DNA of 64,000 nucleotides from an uncultured Alphaproteobacteria bacterium (GCA_947627155.1 CANQUX010000005.1:13513-77512), one strand, 5' to 3'. Positions 1-50,783 are shown, counted from the first letter of the stretch. Translations and numbers: made by a program. The notes: generated by a model from the letters alone, not told the origin.

Positions 1-846
1 ATTACAACGGGGTCTGCTTGAATCCTTGCAATCCGTATGCTCTATACATTCCACACACTCGTGATTTGCTACATCACAAACAGATCTTGGAGCACTGCAA
101 TTGCCATCTCCCACACACTCCACACACGTATTACTCTCTTTATCGCATACCTGTGACTCTTCACAATCTTCATCTTTTGCACACCAACCTTCGGGACGAT
201 TCGAATCATAATTGCCGTTCACATCCGCCGCATCGAACTCAACATAAATTTCATTATTTTCATCACTGGTACATGAATCACCTCCTGTGTAGGACAAACC
301 ATTGATATCCATTTCCAAACGGCCGTCCATGGCGGCAACAAGCGTTGTGAGGGGCTTACAAACACCTTTTGAAATGTTCCCCACGACAATATAATAAGCA
401 TCTGCCTCACGACAATTATAAAGCTCATTTTTACTCTCTTTATTACCTCTGATGATACAATCATAATCAACGGGATAACGATCATATTGTGTTGATAAAT
501 GCCCGCTGTAATCTTCATTTTCTGGTGTATCATCATAAGGATCACCTAATAACAATTCTTCATTCCCCAAAGCGTATTTTACCTTTAAATCGTTACGCAT
601 TAAGTTAATTTCATTGGCAATTTGATCGGCTTGATAGTAGTTCATGGCTAATTTATAGCCGACAATCCCGCCGATTGATAAAATAGCAATAATGGCGAGC
701 ACCCCGAGCATTTCAATCATGCTCCGCCCGCTTTGCGATTGTGTTTTGATGCTATTTTGCTTTTCTTCTTCCCCGCTCACGATTTGTTCTTTATTTCTTT
801 GCATTTCTGCGTAGTTTAGCTGATTTTTTCTTGCATATTTCGTCAT
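1..846 (-). CDS. Modular type IV pilin-like protein, paralog A. Partial: start codon at 846, 3' end lies beyond the window start. Carries a prepilin-type N-terminus followed by Cys-rich repeats
   Basis: Reverse-strand translation from the ATG at 846 gives MTKYARKNQ...SQSG|RSMIEMLGVLAIIAILSIGGIVGYKLAMNYYQADQIANEINLMRNDLKVKYALGNEELLLGDPYDD.... This is >95% identical to paralog D over about 270 aa. It then becomes C-like (CVEC..DC..P.C) repeats. A conserved RBS (aaagggag) and leader lie upstream. It is missing from the ORF track only because no stop codon falls in the window. Confidence 0.7.
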   Translation of the reverse strand, partial: MTKYARKNQLNYAEMQRNKEQIVSGEEEKQNSIKTQSQSGRSMIEMLGVLAIIAILSIGGIVGYKLAMNYYQADQIANEINLMRNDLKVKYALGNEELLLGDPYDDTPENEDYSGHLSTQYDRYPVDYDCIIRGNKESKNELYNCREADAYYIVVGNISKGVCKPLTTLVAAMDGRLEMDINGLSYTGGDSCTSDENNEIYVEFDAADVNGNYDSNRPEGWCAKDEDCEESQVCDKESNTCVECVGDGNCSAPRSVCDVANHECVECIEHTDCKDSSRPRCN

Positions 847-882
847 TTTTGACTCCCTTTCACTCTACGAATAGCATAAAAT

Positions 883-1038
883 AAACGTACCTTTAATGCA
901 ACGCGGATTCGGGGGTAAAATTACCCTCAAAAATTGTTGAAATAGCCTTTTTATAACTATTTGATATTGCATTTATTTTCCTCTAAACTAAATTTTTTTT
1001 GAAAGAATCAAAAAAAGTGTTGCAAAAATCGTACGTTT
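883..1038 (-). promoter_or_regulatory. Conserved leader segment of paralog A, bounded by 20 bp imperfect inverted repeats. The arms are AAACGTACCTTTAATGCAAC and GTTGCAAAAATCGTACGTTT. This is a candidate invertible or operator-controlled promoter/5'UTR
   Basis: The same about 156 bp IR-flanked segment is present upstream of all four pilin-like paralogs. The arms are almost invariant while the interior diverges. Confidence 0.5.
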
Positions 1039-1077
1039 TTTTTGTGCAACACTCCCCAAAATAAAACTCTTTTTTGC

Positions 1078-1105
1078 TTGACATTATTTTGAATATCCTT
1101 ATACT
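1078..1105 (+). promoter_or_regulatory. Sigma70-like promoter (TTGACA-16 bp-TATACT) firing rightward toward the IR hairpin and repeat R1
   Basis: Consensus -35 TTGACA at 1078-1083 and -10 TATACT at 1100-1105. Confidence 0.4.
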
Positions 1106-1685: not shown

Positions 1686-3098
1686 TCACTCACATAACGC
1701 GGAGTAGGAGGCGTTGCCATTGGTGGTGTAGACGTAACCATAGTCAAGGGAGACGTTGTACGCGAAGCAGGAATCTATTTTATTTTCCAACCAGACTCTG
1801 TCTCTTGTCTTACTGCTAAAATCATCTTTCAAATCCGTCCTTGTCTGACTGTTACATGTGCCAAGCCCCACCACACTGCCACACCCGATGCTTGCCCGCG
1901 TTGCTTGCTTCCTTCCTAATGCCTCGCAGAACCGCCCTGCACTCCACCAGTTCATCTCCGTACTTTCTGCATCTTCCGGCCACGCTAATGCAAAGCCGGT
2001 TTTCTTTCCTATTACTTTATCTTTGCTCGCATTCCGGCATTCACTCTTATGAAAGCTATTTCCTCCAAATTTATTAGGGTCAAATTCTTTGCCGTCACCA
2101 CATTGATACCCCCAATACATGTAGCAATACTCTCCCAGCCCGCAATCAGCATTGCTTTCGCATTCTCCGACGCGCTCCTTATCACATCCGCCGTTTTCAA
2201 GTGATGCTTTCCATTCTTTACTTGTGTCACTGCTACAAACGCATTTTCCACCCTCCGGTTTACTGTCTTCCGGACATTCTGTGCATTTAGTGCCGTCCCA
2301 ATATGGTGTAGCAGTGCTGCATACACAGTCTTCGCCATCTTCGCTAAGCTCTGCTCCCGCCGGACAAGCACACTTTCTACCGGTCCATACCTTTCCGCCC
2401 GAACAACCCGCGCAACAGCCGCCGTTACAGGTTTTCTCGGTGTCCTCACAGGTGCATTCGCCCTTATCGTCACTCAACGTTGTACCTCTCGGACATTCTG
2501 CCGGCACGGGGTCATCATCTTGCGGCGCATCGCCTTGTTCCGTGTCTGTTGGCGGATTGCTGCTTCCGCCGCTCACCCCGCCTATATCTTTGGTCGAAAA
2601 GGCGACCATTACTTCATTCGTTTCACCGCAGAAATTATCCTGCTCATCATAATAACTTTTGTCACCTATTTTTATATCAGCCGTATCGTCCATGTTATCT
2701 AACAAGGCTACCAACGGTTTACACACTCCCTCAGGAATGTTTGATAACGTAAACGAATAGCCTTTTTCCGTTTCACCCAATATCTCAATCGGATAAGCTA
2801 TCTCAATGCCATAATTACTGCCAAAATTTAAGTGTTTTTCATCGTCGTATGGCGAGCCGAGCAATAATTCGTCCACCCCGCGCGCAACTTTCATTTTTGC
2901 ATCGGTACGCATCAGGTTAATTTCATTTGCAATCTGATTCGCTTGATATCGATTCATGGCCATTCTGTATCCTGCTATACCGCCAATGCTTAACACCCCG
3001 ATAATAGCCAAAACGCCCAACATTTCAATCATTGAACGGCCTTCTTGAGCTTGATTTTGAACTTGTTTGAACTCTTTTTTCTTTATTTTATTGCTCAT
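1686..3098 (-). CDS. Modular type IV pilin-like protein, paralog B (470 aa). Domains in order: prepilin-type N-terminus, Cys-rich region, C-terminal C-type-lectin-like domain
   Basis: The N-terminus QEG|RSMIEMLGVLAIIGVLSIGGIAGY has the prepilin peptidase site and Glu+5. Many CxxC/DC motifs follow. The C-terminus MNWWSAGRFCEALG...SALCE is CTLD-like. An RBS and the conserved leader lie upstream. Confidence 0.8.
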   Translation of the reverse strand: MSNKIKKKEFKQVQNQAQEGRSMIEMLGVLAIIGVLSIGGIAGYRMAMNRYQANQIANEINLMRTDAKMKVARGVDELLLGSPYDDEKHLNFGSNYGIEIAYPIEILGETEKGYSFTLSNIPEGVCKPLVALLDNMDDTADIKIGDKSYYDEQDNFCGETNEVMVAFSTKDIGGVSGGSSNPPTDTEQGDAPQDDDPVPAECPRGTTLSDDKGECTCEDTEKTCNGGCCAGCSGGKVWTGRKCACPAGAELSEDGEDCVCSTATPYWDGTKCTECPEDSKPEGGKCVCSSDTSKEWKASLENGGCDKERVGECESNADCGLGEYCYMYWGYQCGDGKEFDPNKFGGNSFHKSECRNASKDKVIGKKTGFALAWPEDAESTEMNWWSAGRFCEALGRKQATRASIGCGSVVGLGTCNSQTRTDLKDDFSSKTRDRVWLENKIDSCFAYNVSLDYGYVYTTNGNASYSALCE

Positions 3099-3131
3099 TT
3101 TCTGCTCCCTTTCATAACAAATAGCATAAAT

Positions 3132-3288
3132 TAAACGTACCTTTAATGCAACGCGGTTTCGGGGATAATTTTACCCCTAAAAAGTGTTGAAACAAGCCTG
3201 TTATAACCCGTTGATATTGCATTAAAATTACCTCCATATAAATTTTTTTTGAAAAAATCAAAAAAAAGTGTTGCAAAAATCGTACGTT
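3132..3288 (-). promoter_or_regulatory. Conserved IR-flanked leader segment of paralog B
   Basis: Arms AAACGTACCTTTAATGCAAC (3132-3151) and GTTGCAAAAATCGTACGTTT (3269-3288). It is homologous to leaders A, C and D. Confidence 0.5.
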
Positions 3289-3303
3289 TTTTTGATGCAT
3301 ATT

Positions 3304-3330
3304 CAAAAAAAATCGCCTTGATGAGAGGCG
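3304..3330 (-). terminator. Putative Rho-independent terminator on the minus strand (CGCCTCTCATCAAGGCG hairpin followed by a T-run). No upstream minus-strand gene is evident
   Basis: GC stem with an A8 run on the plus strand (T-run on minus). Confidence 0.3.
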
Positions 3331-17319: not shown

Positions 17320-18624
17320 ATGTTTTTTAAAGCACCAAATCCGGTTAAATTAACACAACCGACAACACCAACGGCCATGCCCATACCAACACCCATGCCG
17401 CAACAACAGGCTTCTTTTACACCCGAACCGATACCGAGTGCTCCGGCTCCTTTGCCGGAATCGACGGTACCGCCGGAACAAACGGAAACGCCAGCAATTT
17501 CACCCGTTCAGGTCACAGAAGCACCGGCCGTAAATCCGTATGCAAAACCGGCCGGCTATGTTGAGCCGCAGCAACAGGAACCTGCGCCGGAAACACATGT
17601 TACGGTAAATACTATAGAGCCGCATGAAGAAATTTTACCGAACGGTGATAAAGTCTTCAAGGCAGCTTCTTTAAAAGATGTCAGTTTTTCGGATATTTGG
17701 TATACACCCGAAAAAATAGCCTATATTCGGGATAAATCCACCAAATTTGCACTTATTCCGTTTGAAACGAACGATTTGGAAGATTTTTACAAAATGTTGG
17801 AACAAGGCTATACGGGCGCTTCCTCCTATGCCTGCCGATTTAAAGGCGAATCGTATCGTATCGAACGAGTCGTTACAACAACGGGCATTCAATACAATTG
17901 CCGTAAAATGCCTGTTTCAACACCGAATTTATATACATTGGGCATTCCCGATCCGATTACAAAATATTTGGCAACATTGGCAACGGAAGCCGGCTTAATT
18001 TTGTTTGCCGGTCCGACGGGTATGGGAAAAACAACCACAGCCTCTGCTTTAATGAGAGAATTTTTGGAAAATCACGGCGGCTTTTTATATACGATTGAAG
18101 ATCCGCCGGAAATGCCGCTGGACGGTTTATATCACGCCAGAAACGGCGCATTGGGATTGTGCAAACAATCACCGGTGGAAAACGAGCGCTGGGAAGACGG
18201 CTTAAAATCGGCGTTACGTTCTCGTCCGCGTTATATTTTGGTTGGCGAAATCAGAGCGCCGGAGGTTGCCTCGCAGGTTTTACGGGCAGCCACTTCCGGA
18301 CACTTGGTGTTATCCACCATTCACGCCACCAGCGTGGAAGATGCTTTGAATTCCATGATTAAGTATGCCTCCGGTGCCGGATTAGATGAAAAACTGGTCG
18401 CTGACTTGTTGGCACGCGGTATTTTAGCGGTTGTTCATCAAAAACTGGAAGGTACACTCACATTACACCCTGTTGTTCAAACGTGTTTTGCCAATCCGAA
18501 TCCGTTAATGCCCGATCAAATGCGCAACGCCATTCGGGAGGGACGAATCAGCTTGGGAACTTTAATGGAGGCGCAACAAACAAAATTGTTCCGCGGGGCT
18601 TCCATGTTTAAAGAAATGCGTTAA
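17320..18624 (+). CDS. PilT/VirB11-family secretion ATPase with an about 130 aa Pro-rich N-terminal extension
   Basis: Walker A GPTGMGKTTT, Asp box TIEDPPE, Walker B ILVGEIR, His box GHLVLSTIHA, and PilT-like C-terminal motif MRNAIRE. Confidence 0.75.
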   Translation: MFFKAPNPVKLTQPTTPTAMPIPTPMPQQQASFTPEPIPSAPAPLPESTVPPEQTETPAISPVQVTEAPAVNPYAKPAGYVEPQQQEPAPETHVTVNTIEPHEEILPNGDKVFKAASLKDVSFSDIWYTPEKIAYIRDKSTKFALIPFETNDLEDFYKMLEQGYTGASSYACRFKGESYRIERVVTTTGIQYNCRKMPVSTPNLYTLGIPDPITKYLATLATEAGLILFAGPTGMGKTTTASALMREFLENHGGFLYTIEDPPEMPLDGLYHARNGALGLCKQSPVENERWEDGLKSALRSRPRYILVGEIRAPEVASQVLRAATSGHLVLSTIHATSVEDALNSMIKYASGAGLDEKLVADLLARGILAVVHQKLEGTLTLHPVVQTCFANPNPLMPDQMRNAIREGRISLGTLMEAQQTKLFRGASMFKEMR

Positions 18625-27990: not shown

Positions 27991-28064
27991 GCGAGTGTAG
28001 CTCAATGGCAGAGCGGAAGCTTCCCAAGCTTAAGACGAGGGTTCGATTCCCTTCACTCGCTCCA
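27991..28064 (+). tRNA. tRNA-Gly (anticodon CCC), 74 nt with CCA encoded
   Basis: Manual cloverleaf: acceptor stem GCGAGTG/CACTCGC, anticodon loop TTCCCAA, T-loop TTCGATT. Confidence 0.85.
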
Positions 28065-28150
28065 TTTTTTTGAATAAGATATCATGCGAAAGTATGTAAA
28101 AATGCAGGGGCATCTACTTTGTTTTGAAATATTTTAAAGCGGAGTTAAAC

Positions 28151-28858
28151 ATGATATATGGCTACATTCGTGTTTCTTCCGACAAGCAAACGTTGGAAAA
28201 TCAAAAATTTGAAATTCGCAAATTTGCTTTACGCAACAGCATTCACATTGATCGCTGGGTTGAAGAAACCATTTCCACGCGCAAACCGCTTGAAAAGCGC
28301 AAATTAAGTCGATTATTAAATATCTTAACGGCAAATGATATTTTAATTACGTCCGAAATATCACGACTGGGGCGTTCATTATTGGAAGTAATGGGTATTT
28401 TACAAAATTGTTTATTAAAGGGGTGTCAAATCTGGACGATTAAAGAAAACTATCGGCTGGGTGCTGATTTACAATCCAAAGTAATGGCATTTGCGTTTGG
28501 TTTATCGGCAGAAATCGAGCGACAACTTATTTCCGATCGCACGCGGTCATCATTGGAAAATTTAAAGGCAAAAGGTATTAAGCTGGGGCGGCCGGTGGGT
28601 GCAAACGGTGCTGTTTTAAAATTACCGGAGAGTTTGGAAAAAATATTTCTTCTGATTAAAAACGGTTGTTCACAAGCCGAAGTTTCACGCATTATGGGTG
28701 TTCACAAGTCAACTATTTGTCGTTTGGTTAAGAAAAATTATCCGGAACTGATGGAAGAGGAAGAAGATTTATTGTTTACGTTGGAATCGCCACTCTCCGT
28801 TCCGTCCGATTTAATGCTTGATTCAACAACTTATCCGCCGTCTACAAACGAAAATTAA
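28151..28858 (+). CDS. Serine recombinase of the resolvase/invertase family
   Basis: N-terminal catalytic motif YGYIRVSSDKQ and a C-terminal HTH region. RBS-supported ATG at 28151. Confidence 0.85.
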   Translation: MIYGYIRVSSDKQTLENQKFEIRKFALRNSIHIDRWVEETISTRKPLEKRKLSRLLNILTANDILITSEISRLGRSLLEVMGILQNCLLKGCQIWTIKENYRLGADLQSKVMAFAFGLSAEIERQLISDRTRSSLENLKAKGIKLGRPVGANGAVLKLPESLEKIFLLIKNGCSQAEVSRIMGVHKSTICRLVKKNYPELMEEEEDLLFTLESPLSVPSDLMLDSTTYPPSTNEN

Positions 28859-30054
28859 AAATGCTTCGGCAACCGGCGTTGACGAGGAGTAACAATACCT
28901 AACTCCATCAATCGTTTCATATATAATGACCCGCGAATAAATAAAATTTTTTCAGGCGGAATTAAAAAATACAAAGAAGAAGTAAATCCGCCGACCCAAT
29001 CGGGTTCATGACCGGTTAAGAAAAACGCTTCAACAGGAATTTGAGAATTAAGCGTATCATATTTCGGAAGAGCTTTTTGCAACAAATGACATTCTTTTTT
29101 GGCACTATAAGAAGGATGGCATTTTAAAAACACACGCGCAGGAATATTTTTGAAAAAAGAGAAAACACTTATTTCCTGATTGACTGATTTTTCATTTCCG
29201 AAAAAATATCCGGCAGTTAAAAACACCTTTTTTTGCGGCGTTGATAAAGCTTGAACGGTTACCGAATCAATTTCAAAAAAATGCTCCAACAACTTTTTTT
29301 CATGCGGAGCAAGCCGAGCAGCTTCCGATTTTAAACTGATATTTTTAATATTCTTACGACCTATCCAATTGACAAACGTTTTTAATTTTTTATCTTTAAT
29401 AATTTCATCAGCACGACACAAATGGTAGGTAGCCGGCACCAACTTTCCGATAGAAGCTTTCCAAAATGCCACATCTTCATTTTTAATTTCACTGAAAAAA
29501 TTCGGATTTTTTTCAAAATTCCGTAAAATTTTAACATCGGGTTTAAACCGCATCCAAAAACCATATTCATTCCCGATAACATTACAAGCGCCGTCTTCAT
29601 ATAAATGAATATGCTCAATTCGAGAGGGGAGTTCTTTAATCAGCCGTAACAAGAAATAGCGCGTTTGATTGATATTTGAATAAACTTCAAATTGAGCTTT
29701 CGGATATCGATCGGCAATTCTTTTTAATGTTTTGATAAAAGAAGCCGAATGATACCCCCATAAACCTTCCGACGCCGCCAGATTAACTTCAACGGCATTT
29801 ATTTTGGATAAATCAAAAATTCTTGCGCGATTGGGGTAGCGATGAAAGAAAAAAACTTTTAATTCATTTTTTTCATGAGCCGCTTTAATAAATTCCACAC
29901 TTTCCCAAAGAACAGGTGAAGTAGCATAAACTTCAAAAAAAACTTTAATTTTACGAATATGTTGGGGGGGGGGGGTATTGTATAAGCATAAGAGAAGAAC
30001 GGTCAAAACCGTTAAAATAAATGTCTTTAAAAAAACTCTAACGGAATGTTTCAC
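28855..30054 (-). CDS. Membrane-anchored hypothetical protein with a C12 tract in codons 26-30. Possibly a glycosyltransferase-like LOS-modifying enzyme (uncertain); candidate for phase variation
   Basis: N-terminal signal-anchor. The poly-C tract encodes TPPPQ. No confident family assignment was possible by eye. Confidence 0.5.
   Translation of the reverse strand: MKHSVRVFLKTFILTVLTVLLLCLYNTPPPQHIRKIKVFFEVYATSPVLWESVEFIKAAHEKNELKVFFFHRYPNRARIFDLSKINAVEVNLAASEGLWGYHSASFIKTLKRIADRYPKAQFEVYSNINQTRYFLLRLIKELPSRIEHIHLYEDGACNVIGNEYGFWMRFKPDVKILRNFEKNPNFFSEIKNEDVAFWKASIGKLVPATYHLCRADEIIKDKKLKTFVNWIGRKNIKNISLKSEAARLAPHEKKLLEHFFEIDSVTVQALSTPQKKVFLTAGYFFGNEKSVNQEISVFSFFKNIPARVFLKCHPSYSAKKECHLLQKALPKYDTLNSQIPVEAFFLTGHEPDWVGGFTSSLYFLIPPEKILFIRGSLYMKRLMELGIVTPRQRRLPKHF
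29964..29975. repeat. Homopolymeric G12 tract (C12 on the coding strand) inside the 5' end of the 28855..30054 CDS
   Basis: Counted directly in the sequence. Confidence 0.9.
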
Positions 30055-48342: not shown

Positions 48343-48497
48343 AAACGTACCTTTAATGCAACGCGGATTCCGGGGCAAAATTACCTTTAAAAAGCAAAAA
48401 ATCACCCTTAAAAAACAATCGAAAAATCAATGAATTCCGGCCAAAATAAATTTTTTTTGAAAAAATCAAAAAAAAGTGTTGCAAAAATCGTACGTTT
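48343..48497 (-). promoter_or_regulatory. Conserved IR-flanked leader segment of paralog C
   Basis: Arms at 48343-48362 and 48478-48497. Confidence 0.5.
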
Positions 48498-48562
48498 AAT
48501 TGAGGAAAGAGAAGCAGGGAAAATATGTTTGTTTTATTTGGTATTCGTTGGGCTACTCTCTG

Positions 48563-48902
48563 TTATTTTCGGCGGGAAGTGCTGTCCCGTGAAACGTGGG
48601 ACAGCGCGGTGTGCCGAAAATAAGAAACGGAAAGCGGCAATATTGATATTTTCTCTGATTCTCGACACATAGCAGGACGTCACTTTTCACGACGTCCCAC
48701 ACCCGCCGAGAATCAGAGAAAGGAAGCAAGGCCAACAGATAACTTTTCTCTTTCATGGTTGAAAATTGTGTTGTTAACGAACTTCCCCCTTTTGTCGGTG
48801 GGTGGAAAGTAATGAAACACTTCCTCTTTTCCTCTATCGGCGGATGTGATGCGCTGCTGAAAGGAGCGCATCGCTATGGGCCGATAGGGGGAAAGTGAGC
48901 GG
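48563..48902. repeat. GC-rich structured repeat element R, copy 2; lies between the divergent leaders of paralogs C and D
   Basis: About 93% identical to 1334..1672, with a compensatory change in the TCTCTGATT(C/T)TCG(A/G) stem. Confidence 0.6.
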
Positions 48903-48929
48903 TTTATTTTGGGAAGCGTTGCACAAATT

Positions 48930-49085
48930 AAACGTACGATTTTTGCAACACTTTTTTTTGATTTTTTCAAAAAAAATTTATTTTGGACGGAATTCATTGA
49001 TTTTTCGAGTGTTTTTTAAGGGTGAATTTTGGCAGTTTGAAGGCAAATTTTGCCCCCGAAACTGCGTTGCATTAAAGGTACGTTT
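48930..49085 (+). promoter_or_regulatory. Conserved IR-flanked leader segment of paralog D
   Basis: Arms AAACGTACGATTTTTGCAAC (48930-48949) and GTTGCATTAAAGGTACGTTT (49066-49085). Confidence 0.5.
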
Positions 49086-49121
49086 ATTTTATGCTATTCG
49101 CAGAGTGAAAGGGAGTCAAAA

Positions 49122-50669
49122 ATGACAAGACAATTCAAAAAAAATCAATTAAAACAATTTCAAAATCAAGCGCAACAAGGCCGGTCAATGGTTGAAATGC
49201 TCGGCGTACTGGCTATTATTGCTATTTTGTCAATCGGCGGGATTGTCGGCTATAAATTAGCCATGAATTATTATCAGGCCGATCAGATTGCGAATGAAAT
49301 TAACTTAATGCGTAACGATTTAAAGGTTAAATACGCTTTGGGAAATGAAGAATTGTTGCTCGGGGATCCTTATGATGATACACCAGAAAATGAACATTAC
49401 CGCGGGCATTTATCAACACAATATGATCGTTATCCCGTTGATTATGATTGCATCATCAGAGGTAATAAAGAGAGTAAAAATGAGCTTTATAATTGCCGCG
49501 AAGCAGATGCTTATTATATTGCCGTGGGGAACATTTCAAAGGGTGTTTGTAAACCGCTTACAACGCTTGTTGCCGCCATGGACGGCCGTTTGGAAATGGA
49601 TATCAATGGTTTGTCCTACACAGGAGGTGATTCATGTACCAGTGATGAAAATAATGAAATTTATGTTGAATTCGATGCGGCGGATGTAAACGGCAATTAC
49701 GATTCGGGGCGCCCAAAAGGCTGGTGTGCCAAAGATGACGATTGCGAAGGATTATCAACCCCTGTTTGCGATAAGGAAAACAATACGTGTGTGGAATGTA
49801 CGGAAAATACGCATTGCGCCTCAAATATATGTCGGAAAGATCACACTTGCGGTGAATGCACAAAAGATTCGGATTGTGTCAATCCGCGCCCGATATGCGA
49901 TACGGAATCGGCAACATGTATGAGATGTGCTGTTGACGATGAATGTCAAAGAGCCAACGTGAATAAACCTGTTTGCGACATGGGTACCGGCGCTTGTTGC
50001 GATGATCCGCTCATGACATGGAATGGCAGCGAATGCGTTTGCCCCGAAGATTATGCCAAATCGGAAACCAGTTCCGGTCAAGCTATTTGTTTACCTTATT
50101 GCGAGGAAAATAATATCGGTATTATTTTAATGACGGATACTTCCGGCTCAATGACTCTGCAAATGTTTGAAAATGCCAACAAAGCCAAAGAGGCGCTTCA
50201 TATTCCGGAAGATATTCCGTCAGCCGTTTATTGGTGTGCTGCTTGTTATGATGCACATTGTTTGAAAAACACGCCATCCGGTCCGGTAAATGAACATCTT
50301 TCTTACGGAAAACATTCTGTCAGTGAAATTCGCGCTGCTCTTCAAACAAATGTATCGGACAGGCTCAAAGTAACCGGTGATTTTGGTGGCAGTATTTATA
50401 AAATTATGGATTATTGCTCAACCATTAAAGAAAAACTCATTATTATTGTTTGGTGGGATAATCAAAAACCGGCCGATACCGGTAATGATATACCTGCATT
50501 TTCAAAATTGAAAGAAAAATGCCCCGAAACGGTTATTTATAATGTATCACCGAATGCCAAATCATTTGCAAGCGCTGATAAATCTTTTGATTTAAATGAC
50601 ATTACAACGGAATATACGGAAGTTTTAAATCAATTCATTCAAAAAGAAGGTTGTGTTGAGCGAGAATAA
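49122..50669 (+). CDS. Modular type IV pilin-like protein, paralog D (515 aa). Domains in order: prepilin N-terminus, Cys-rich repeats, C-terminal vWA-like domain
   Basis: MTRQFKKNQLKQFQNQAQQG|RSMVEMLG...; vWA MIDAS-like motif IILMTDTSGSMT. Confidence 0.8.
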   Translation: MTRQFKKNQLKQFQNQAQQGRSMVEMLGVLAIIAILSIGGIVGYKLAMNYYQADQIANEINLMRNDLKVKYALGNEELLLGDPYDDTPENEHYRGHLSTQYDRYPVDYDCIIRGNKESKNELYNCREADAYYIAVGNISKGVCKPLTTLVAAMDGRLEMDINGLSYTGGDSCTSDENNEIYVEFDAADVNGNYDSGRPKGWCAKDDDCEGLSTPVCDKENNTCVECTENTHCASNICRKDHTCGECTKDSDCVNPRPICDTESATCMRCAVDDECQRANVNKPVCDMGTGACCDDPLMTWNGSECVCPEDYAKSETSSGQAICLPYCEENNIGIILMTDTSGSMTLQMFENANKAKEALHIPEDIPSAVYWCAACYDAHCLKNTPSGPVNEHLSYGKHSVSEIRAALQTNVSDRLKVTGDFGGSIYKIMDYCSTIKEKLIIIVWWDNQKPADTGNDIPAFSKLKEKCPETVIYNVSPNAKSFASADKSFDLNDITTEYTEVLNQFIQKEGCVERE

Positions 50670-50695: not shown

Positions 50696-50783
50696 TGGCG
50701 GAGAGTACAGGACTCGAACCTGTGCATCCTTTTAGGGGATGACGGATTAGCAATCCGCTGCATTACCGCTCTGCCAACTCTCC
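50696..50783 (-). tRNA. tRNA-Ser (anticodon GCU), class II with a long variable arm, 88 nt
   Basis: Manual cloverleaf: acceptor stem GGAGAGT/ACTCTCC, anticodon loop TTGCTAA, variable arm CATCC..GGATG, T-loop TTCGAGT. Confidence 0.85.

Follow-up and report, generated by a model that had tools for sequence, protein, structure and literature searches.

In the pilin variation of Neisseria, which starts at a guanine-quadruplex (G4) structure, a single expression locus receives variable 3' segments from silent cassettes that are promoterless and 5'-truncated. A survey of modular pilins covered more than 1,200 proteins with 264 architectures (PMC8179133), and in Streptococcus sanguinis PilB carries a von Willebrand factor A (vWA) module and PilC a lectin module (PMC8179133, PMC9934059). 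CofB of enterotoxigenic Escherichia coli and TcpB of Vibrio cholerae are large type IVb minor pilins with extra C-terminal domains, and in PilV of IncI plasmids alternative C-terminal ends set the binding specificity (PMC5207764, PMC9045228). The chimeric fibre (MAT) proteins of Bdellovibrio bacteriovorus are trimeric and, according to the PDB entry, contain a peptidase S74 domain (PMC10769870). Here we analyzed a stretch of 64,000 nucleotides (64 kb; the window) from an uncultured Alphaproteobacteria bacterium (GCA_947627155.1 CANQUX010000005.1:13513-77512), which carries four pilin-like genes, A to D (Table 1). Gene A was a mosaic of pieces with different nearest relatives, and ordinary recombination among complete paralogs was probably the source of this modular-pilin mosaic. 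The proteins of the family are modular: a leader of the class-III type precedes a type IVb-like pilin module, which is followed by a cysteine-rich stalk and, at the C terminus, by a head of one of at least three unrelated kinds.

The genes resemble pilE/pilS of Neisseria in being multi-copy members of a pilin family, in which non-reciprocal homologous recombination would give rise to mosaics. However, all copies here are full-length with their own upstream region, no G4 motif (G3+N1-7, four times) was present on either strand of the 64 kb, and the 5' pilin module was replaced, the 3' head keeping to its locus. The modular pilins of S. sanguinis likewise have an N-terminal pilin module with a binding module grafted on via a linker. 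They differ from the proteins described here, in which the pilin module is type IVb-like, the linker is a long cysteine-rich stalk, and one head is C-type-lectin-like, whereas theirs is concanavalin-like; moreover, the genes here form a dispersed multigene family of at least eight genes or gene fragments, counted from the window and the contigs of sample ERZ27249386, which also holds this strain. Because no Pfam- or InterPro-type signature detects these heads, a domain-based survey would miss them. In CofB, TcpB, and PilV, a pilin domain is also followed by additional C-terminal domains, and CofB appeared as a weak match (E = 1.3) in a Foldseek search with a low-confidence model of A. Whereas CofB and TcpB are encoded by single genes within a pilus operon, the genes here are separate, complete, and scattered among housekeeping genes. 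The PilV ends are exchanged by Rci-mediated inversion behind one constant 5' part, whereas no Rci-type recombinase was found here. The Bdellovibrio fibre proteins are not pilin-like, and their carrier module is not homologous to the one described here.

Segment structure of gene A

The full-length product of A is P0001, a protein of 486 amino acids with 100% identity to the translated part of A over residues 1-282. In a nucleotide alignment of A, C, and D, A matched D at 303 of 316 positions (95.9%) and C at 70.9% between window positions 529 and 214, and then switched abruptly to 81.7% identity with C vs 63.3% with D between positions 213 and 40. The preliminary description of this DNA had seen A as a mosaic among paralogs, D-like over its first ~270 codons, with leaders identical between the genes, and C-like at its 3' end. 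The abrupt change of nearest relative was borne out, but the place, the extent, and the donor of the pieces differed. The first 39 residues, up to the conserved Gly40, were a leader that contained an insertion (Table 1) and was about 42-47% identical to the leaders of D (8/19) and C (7/15); it was therefore neither D-like nor identical. Comparably long leaders occurred in a paralog in L066 and in P0123, and the best match of the leader of A was a paralog in L006. The upstream spacer of A was of the L006/L009 type, which within the window is B-like. Codons 40-101, which encode the alpha1 helix, were common to all paralogs: the protein identity was 98-100% among A, C, D, P0002, and P0004, the last two being paralogs outside the window (from L083 and L085, respectively, both in sample ERZ27249386). 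As the synonymous divergence (dS) of the paralogs in alpha1 was 0.48-1.16, the constancy of this helix was attributed to purifying selection, and similarity in alpha1 as a mark of recent conversion was rejected.

The globular head of the pilin module that follows was the D-like tract. It showed 13 differences from D in 335 nucleotides, with a perfect run of 110 nucleotides at window positions 348-239 in the mismatch map, and its best match by segment was D (96.1%), with P0002 (89.9%) as the runner-up. The D-like part did not reach codon ~270 but ended near codons 213-229; the sequence GWCAKDEDCE begins at residue 220. Beyond it, the stalk of A was closer to C than to the other genes of the window, as had been described, but P0002 and P0004 were closer still. 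In blastn searches the stalk showed 86, 85, and 82% identity with P0002, P0004, and C, respectively, and about 60% with D; sliding windows gave 88-91% nucleotide identity with P0002/P0004 vs 71-84% with C, and the amino acid identity was 85 vs 73%. The window does not reach the actual 3' end of A, where the resemblance to C did not hold: the last 145 residues of P0001, which are the true head of A, had no detectable similarity to the head of C and resembled instead the heads of P0004 (47%) and P0013 (57%). The antisense open reading frames (ORFs) at 18-305 and 47565-47849, which had also been described, do exist, and are alike only through the homologous stalks of A and C that they oppose.

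Breakpoint testing placed the end of the D-like tract with high significance. The maximum chi-square on informative sites was 54.7, with the break between window positions 223 and 220; this value was reached in none of 10,000 permutations (largest value, 19.2), and Fisher's test gave p = 1.5e-13. Between A and D, dS fell from 0.59 in the alpha1 flank to 0.18 within the tract and then reached saturation over the stalk. The lower value in the tract than in the flank indicated a shared, more recent origin of the tract, although a dS of 0.18 means that the A-D event was not very recent. A D-like tract bounded on both sides fits a patch-type conversion better than a single crossover. When P0002 and P0004 were added, the pairwise homoplasy index (PHI) test gave p = 5e-4, and 38% of informative site pairs were incompatible under the four-gamete condition. 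In neighbour-joining trees, the pilin head grouped A with D (99% bootstrap) and C with P0004 (100%), whereas the stalk grouped A with P0002 and P0004 (82%), the latter two being joined at 100%. It is scarcely credible that selective constraint or convergence after duplication produced this pattern with no recombination. Selection does explain a part of it, namely, the alpha1 helix, which is nearly constant in protein in spite of its high dS; however, the contrast between tract and flank lies at synonymous sites, the topologies of the segments conflict with 99-100% bootstrap, both PHI and maximum chi-square were significant, and more than a third of the informative pairs fail the four-gamete condition. 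A further point against it is a 17-fold jump in divergence at one point between alleles of another family member, given below. Recombination between family members, as had been proposed, was thus upheld by the heterogeneity of dS, the conflicting segment trees, the PHI test, the decoupling of modules across the family, and these alleles.

Decoupled modules, the rpmE-locus alleles, and the type of recombination

Across the family, the relationships of pilin modules and heads were decoupled. A and D had 98% identity in the pilin module and unrelated heads, whereas A and P0013 had 57% identity in the head and 53% in the pilin module. The same pair of head types recurred in two further pilin subfamilies, on modules 91-92% identical to each other: the modules of P0024 and P0021 were 92% identical and their heads unrelated, and those of P0013 and P0016 were 91% identical with heads of different types. 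The pilin modules closest to that of C (P0007, 95%; P0005, 94%) bear heads only distantly similar to its own, and the head nearest to that of C (P0021, 56%) belongs to a protein whose pilin module shares only 50% identity with that of C. Because heads of the same type were only 39-64% identical between paralogs, the exchange of heads was judged to be ancient.

Variant chimeras in related strains, which the preliminary description had suggested looking for at the loci of the window, were found at another family member. P0009, P0124, and P0123 fall into one 90%-identity cluster and are alleles of one gene outside the window; P0009 and P0123 lie by rpmE, and the sample of P0124 also holds a strain about 95% identical to that of the window. 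The divergence among the three alleles was 1.0-5.2% in the 3' 699 nucleotides (nucleotide ~748 to the stop codon and beyond) and 16.7-18.9% in the first 747 nucleotides, in which there was also a leader indel (Fisher p, 1e-29 to 5e-14); the transition was abrupt and fell near nucleotide 748. The P0009 protein was identical on four contigs, one of them 192 kb long, and the contig of P0123 extends beyond the gene on either side. The head is thus constant at the locus and the 5' half is not, so that the 5' module is the replaced part. This reverses the earlier proposal that whole binding domains are the exchanged cassette, with the conserved 5' module as the handle for swapping C-terminal modules, and the polarity is opposite to that of pilE/pilS.

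We also weighed whether the genes undergo a programmed variation of antigens or adhesins, as in pilE/pilS or a shufflon, in which a dedicated mechanism would frequently move cassettes within a clonal population and so change the binding head that is expressed. In favour of this, the genes are pilin-like, with mosaics among them; heads that diverge by 1% below very different 5' halves point to a population timescale; C and D are divergent genes with 300-nucleotide inverted repeats that are 91% complementary; a serine recombinase gene (28124-28858) lies in the window; and two invariant upstream boxes, 113-115 nucleotides apart, form an imperfect inverted repeat. Programmed variation is nevertheless improbable. 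Every copy is full-length, has its own start codon and ribosome-binding site, and lies behind the conserved upstream region with its boxes; a tblastn search of the 64 kb revealed no 5'-truncated or promoterless copies, so that the analogy to pilE/pilS drawn earlier is unsupported on this point as well as on that of the missing G4 motif. The small serine recombinase was the sole recombinase found, at a distance of about 20 kb from both loci; the window ORFs of 250 amino acids or more included no tyrosine recombinase, and no recombinase was adjacent to the genes. The adjacent recombinase and short flanking sites of shufflons and other invertible pilin systems (Rci/PilV, Piv/TfpQ-I) were thus not found. 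The inverted repeats are the paralogous 5' regions themselves, except for one 48-nucleotide pair inside a hairpin-rich element, and the two spacer types in the upstream regions are not inversions of each other (alignment score, 48 direct vs 14 reverse-complement). Moreover, contigs of this strain from two other samples (ERZ27249386 and ERZ27249684) matched the window at 99.98-100% identity, variation at a locus affects the 5' part and leaves the head in place, and a related strain (~95% identity) keeps the head of D at the same locus. No sign of programmed cassette switching was found, and the pattern is one of evolutionary shuffling among expressed-type paralogs.

The favoured explanation, ordinary recombination among complete paralogs, would work as follows. 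The genes share 80-96% identity over their 5' ~750 nucleotides (upstream region, pilin module, and first stalk repeats), including perfect runs of 40-110 nucleotides, a likeness through which general homologous recombination could copy patches from one paralog to another. The minimal processing segment in RecA-dependent recombination of E. coli is ~25 nucleotides, and the perfect runs exceed this length. The mechanism would be of the RecA type, and the outcome would be non-reciprocal patch conversions between dispersed copies. On this explanation, A would have been put together from a B-type spacer, its own long leader, the family-wide alpha1 helix, a pilin head from a D-like donor (or the transfer may have gone in the reverse direction), a stalk like those of P0002 and P0004, and a head of the kind seen in P0004 and P0013.

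Several observations weigh against this explanation. A part of the similarity profile, in the alpha1 helix, reflects purifying selection and not conversion, and the dS of the tract dates the A-D event as not recent. The pilin motifs of Pfam and NCBIfam scored under their cut-offs (PF07963 (N_methyl), 15.4 bits vs 21.2; TIGR02532, 14 vs 16.3), with an atypical motif, and the window contained no prepilin peptidase gene or pilus assembly operon, with a lone PilT-like ATPase gene only. The two junctions of A rest on one metagenome-assembled contig. L001, an independent contig that is 100% identical to the window, stops at window position 624, i.e., before the junctions, and other independent contigs also break within the repeated 5' region: L083 starts 17 nucleotides before its gene and L086 159 nucleotides before C. 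The coverage of L089, which carries P0124, was 4x, and the same assembly caveat applies to it. A small chance of an assembly join in A therefore remains.

It is nonetheless doubtful that the mosaic as a whole arose as an artefact of assembly, by joins across shared k-mers. SPAdes contigs of the other samples do stop inside the repeated 5' region, and P0001 was recorded from one contig only. However, the tract differs from D at 13 sites, the stalk differs from P0002/P0004 by ~14%, and the leader is unique; since every segment of A differs from the other known copies, A is not a simple assembly chimera of known copies. The reading frame is also intact across both junctions, P0009 and P0123 are backed by the contigs described above, and C was found at 99.98% identity on an independent 45-kb contig. 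No independent copy of P0001 or D was present in the contig index, and exact-pattern scans of the Joint Genome Institute (JGI) metagenome collection gave no match to the A-specific junction or to upstream box 2. A separate observation was made in the related strain on L087, which is about 95% identical over 8.8 kb with the same gene order: its ortholog of D (L087:185-200; window ~50085) has an extra T (TTTT vs TTT), which shifts the frame just before the head. This could be a pseudogene, a slippage variant, or an assembly error at low coverage (5x). Short-read assemblies and orthology calls can be expected to be unreliable across this pilin-like family.

A further reading takes the genes as a combinatorial repertoire of pilus-tip adhesins, in which the shared regulatory cassette and 5' module would coordinate expression, possibly with one gene expressed at a time, and would also serve as a recombination handle that re-pairs the pieces between strains. 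This reading, in which the family is likened by analogy to var genes or to the Bdellovibrio fibre set, we regard as rather unlikely.

Protein modules, upstream regions, and genomic setting

All four genes encode the motif ...Q(S/Q/E)G|RSM(I/V)EMLGVLAII..., with Gly at the predicted cleavage site, Glu at +5, and Arg as the +1 residue, after leaders of 16-40 residues. Type IVb pilins are recognized by a long leader and a +1 residue other than Phe, and these genes show both. More distant relatives of about 200 amino acids carry Bundlin (PF05307) and PilS_N (PF08805). An AlphaFold model of C, built from 70 sequences with a mean predicted local distance difference test (pLDDT) score of 75.8, had four parts: a 50-residue N-terminal helix (residues 20-69), a beta-sheet domain, a stalk of short hairpins, and a compact C-terminal domain. 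The long N-terminal helix packed on an antiparallel beta-sheet is the pilin fold, and the pilin module of C in this model resembles type IVb pilins. The arrangement of an N-terminal pilin module, a linker, and a further module with its own fold is that of modular pilins as defined by Raynaud et al. (PMC8179133). The model of A, from 12 sequences, was poor (pLDDT, 57) with an unresolved head, and only its pilin part was used. From these features, we infer that the proteins are modular pilin-like and are probably displayed on a type IV filament as adhesins.

In its modelled fold, the head of C is C-type-lectin-like, a fold match that Pfam does not detect. The calcium- and sugar-binding residues of C-type lectins lie in EPN/QPD and WND motifs. 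The head of B is of the same kind as that of C, and blastp placed such heads in about 60 of the 124 family proteins. A and D have distinct heads. The head of D contains a D-x-S-x-S motif that is conserved in a 41%-identical paralog in L085. As vWA domains have a Rossmann-like fold with a D-x-S-x-S MIDAS motif, this head may be vWA-like; when it was compared by profile with PDB sequences, the vWA matches were non-significant (MIC2, E = 0.95; collagen VI, E = 1). At E up to 10, Pfam had no match for the heads of A, B, C, and D or for the stalk, and the sole match in NCBIfam was to the cysteine-rich repeats of Myxococcus TraA. Searches of PDB sequences gave nothing significant. A homologue search with the head of D alone returned one match, and one with the head of A alone returned none, with P0001 itself also missed owing to a word-index limit.

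The upstream ~200 nucleotides were more conserved than the coding sequence and were present in every family member; this conservation extended to other species and to subfamilies whose proteins are less than 50% identical. The compared set comprised the four regions of the window and those of L003-L009, L019, L021, L023, and L066. Two boxes were invariant, box 1, AAACGTACG(A/T)TTTTTGCAACAC, and box 2, GTTGCATTAAAGGTACGTTTA, at the spacing given above, and they form the imperfect inverted repeat AAACGTAC-N6-TGCAAC (16/20 positions). The spacer between them was of two sequence types, which assort independently of the coding subfamily. As these types are not inversions, an invertible promoter was rejected. 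Scans for sigma-70 promoters and terminators showed no excess over shuffled sequence. The upstream region is probably a shared regulator-binding or promoter cassette. A non-coding element of ~340 nucleotides occurred in two copies of ~94% identity, one between B and the upstream region of A (1338-1675) and the other between the divergent genes C and D (48567-48905). No conserved ORF was present in it, but it folds into several near-perfect hairpins, and the folding-energy z-score was -7.3 for either strand; it had no Rfam match and was absent from the other fetched loci except for same-strain copies. It could be a miniature inverted-repeat transposable element (MITE), a repetitive extragenic palindromic (REP)-like repeat, or a structured RNA.

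Table 1. Location of the pilin-like genes, the segments of gene A, the upstream regions, and the rpmE-locus alleles (window positions unless a contig is named)
Feature	Location	Strand	Description	Basis
Gene A	1..846	-	first 282 codons only, ATG at 846, truncated at window edge	translation
Leader region of A	741..846	-	codons 1-35; 20-24-codon insertion relative to C and D	alignments
alpha1 N-terminal helix of A	544..740	-	starts GRSMIEMLGV; A codons 40-101
D-like conversion tract	209..543	-	globular head of pilin module, A codons 102-213
Linker and first cysteine-rich stalk repeats of A	1..208	-
Upstream region of A	847..1080	-	box 1 AAACGTACGATTTTTGCAACAC, 114-nt A/B-type spacer, box 2 GTTGCATTAAAGGTACGTTTA, ribosome-binding site GAAAGGGAG
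Gene B	1686..3098	-	distant paralog, different pilin subfamily, 33% identical to A overall
Upstream region of B	3099..3330	-	same two boxes, A/B-type spacer
Gene C	46759..48306	-	type IVb-like pilin module, cysteine-rich stalk, and C-type-lectin-like head
Upstream region of C	48307..48540	-	C/D-type spacer
Upstream region of D	48890..49121	+	C/D-type spacer; divergent from that of C, with long inverted repeats with it
Gene D	49122..50669	+	pilin module 97-98% protein identity to that of A; different stalk; third head type
P0009	L088:181-1626		just upstream of rpmE
P0124	L089:312-1754		2-kb contig holding this gene alone
P0123	L090:2182-3714		just upstream of rpmE; GTDB representative Lapin-024 bin64

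A and B are in tandem, and C and D are divergent. A tblastn search of the 64-kb window with A (full length), B, C, and D revealed these four genes only, with no extra copies or fragments. The remainder of the window is chromosomal and includes the ATP synthase F0 operon, lpxC, infB, nusA, htpG, nrdD, dnaA, a PBP1-type gene, miaA, holA, parAB, gidB, and cysS; Rfam identified two tRNAs and nothing else over the window. The same strain is present in at least two other samples (L001 and L002, 100%, and L086, 99.98% identical to the window). A homologue search returned 501 proteins at E ≤ 0.001, and more than 569 family loci were counted in GTDB representative genomes; the related loci in GTDB belong to metagenome-assembled genomes of uncultured Alphaproteobacteria from rabbit, ruminant, and human gut. 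Outside the window, a second D-type head (42% identity to that of D) lies upstream of P0004 (L085:3-788), a further family 5' end follows rpsI-rplM (L085:3890-4120), and a divergent partner gene lies upstream of P0123 (L090:112-1521). Divergent or tandem pairs beside ribosomal-protein genes seem to be a recurrent arrangement.

The PilT/PilU-like secretion ATPase gene (17320-18624; T2SSE domain, well under family cut-offs) sits between rimP-nusA-infB and htpG, with no further pilus genes near it. The serine recombinase, of the resolvase/invertase type, directly follows tRNA-Gly(CCC), and the next gene is sialyltransferase-like (28855-30054). This region (27991-30054) has a lower G+C (0.37) and may be a small island; no connection of it to the pilin genes was found. 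Downstream of C (42308-46525) are genes for proteins of 398 and 277 amino acids, neither with a family match, and for a VirD4/TraG-like type IV secretion coupling protein (43142-45325), and tRNA-Ser(GCT) (50696-50783) lies directly 3' of D. The C/D pair may lie in or beside what is left of an integrated conjugative element.

Gene conversion among paralogs is itself ordinary, and the novelty lies in the modular-pilin gene family in which it was found. Modular pilins, which have only lately been recognized as a means of equipping type IV filaments with new binding functions, are so far known mostly as single genes identified by database domains, whereas here at least eight genes or fragments, apparently in one bacterium, encode heads that escape Pfam and are borne on a type IVb-like carrier. 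The repertoire would evolve by recombination that re-pairs carrier, stalk, and head, and alleles of different strains differ in the 5' module. The lectin-like heads, which could be expressed, and the protein that would bind the upstream element offer targets for the study of attachment to hosts or partner cells in these little-known gut Alphaproteobacteria.

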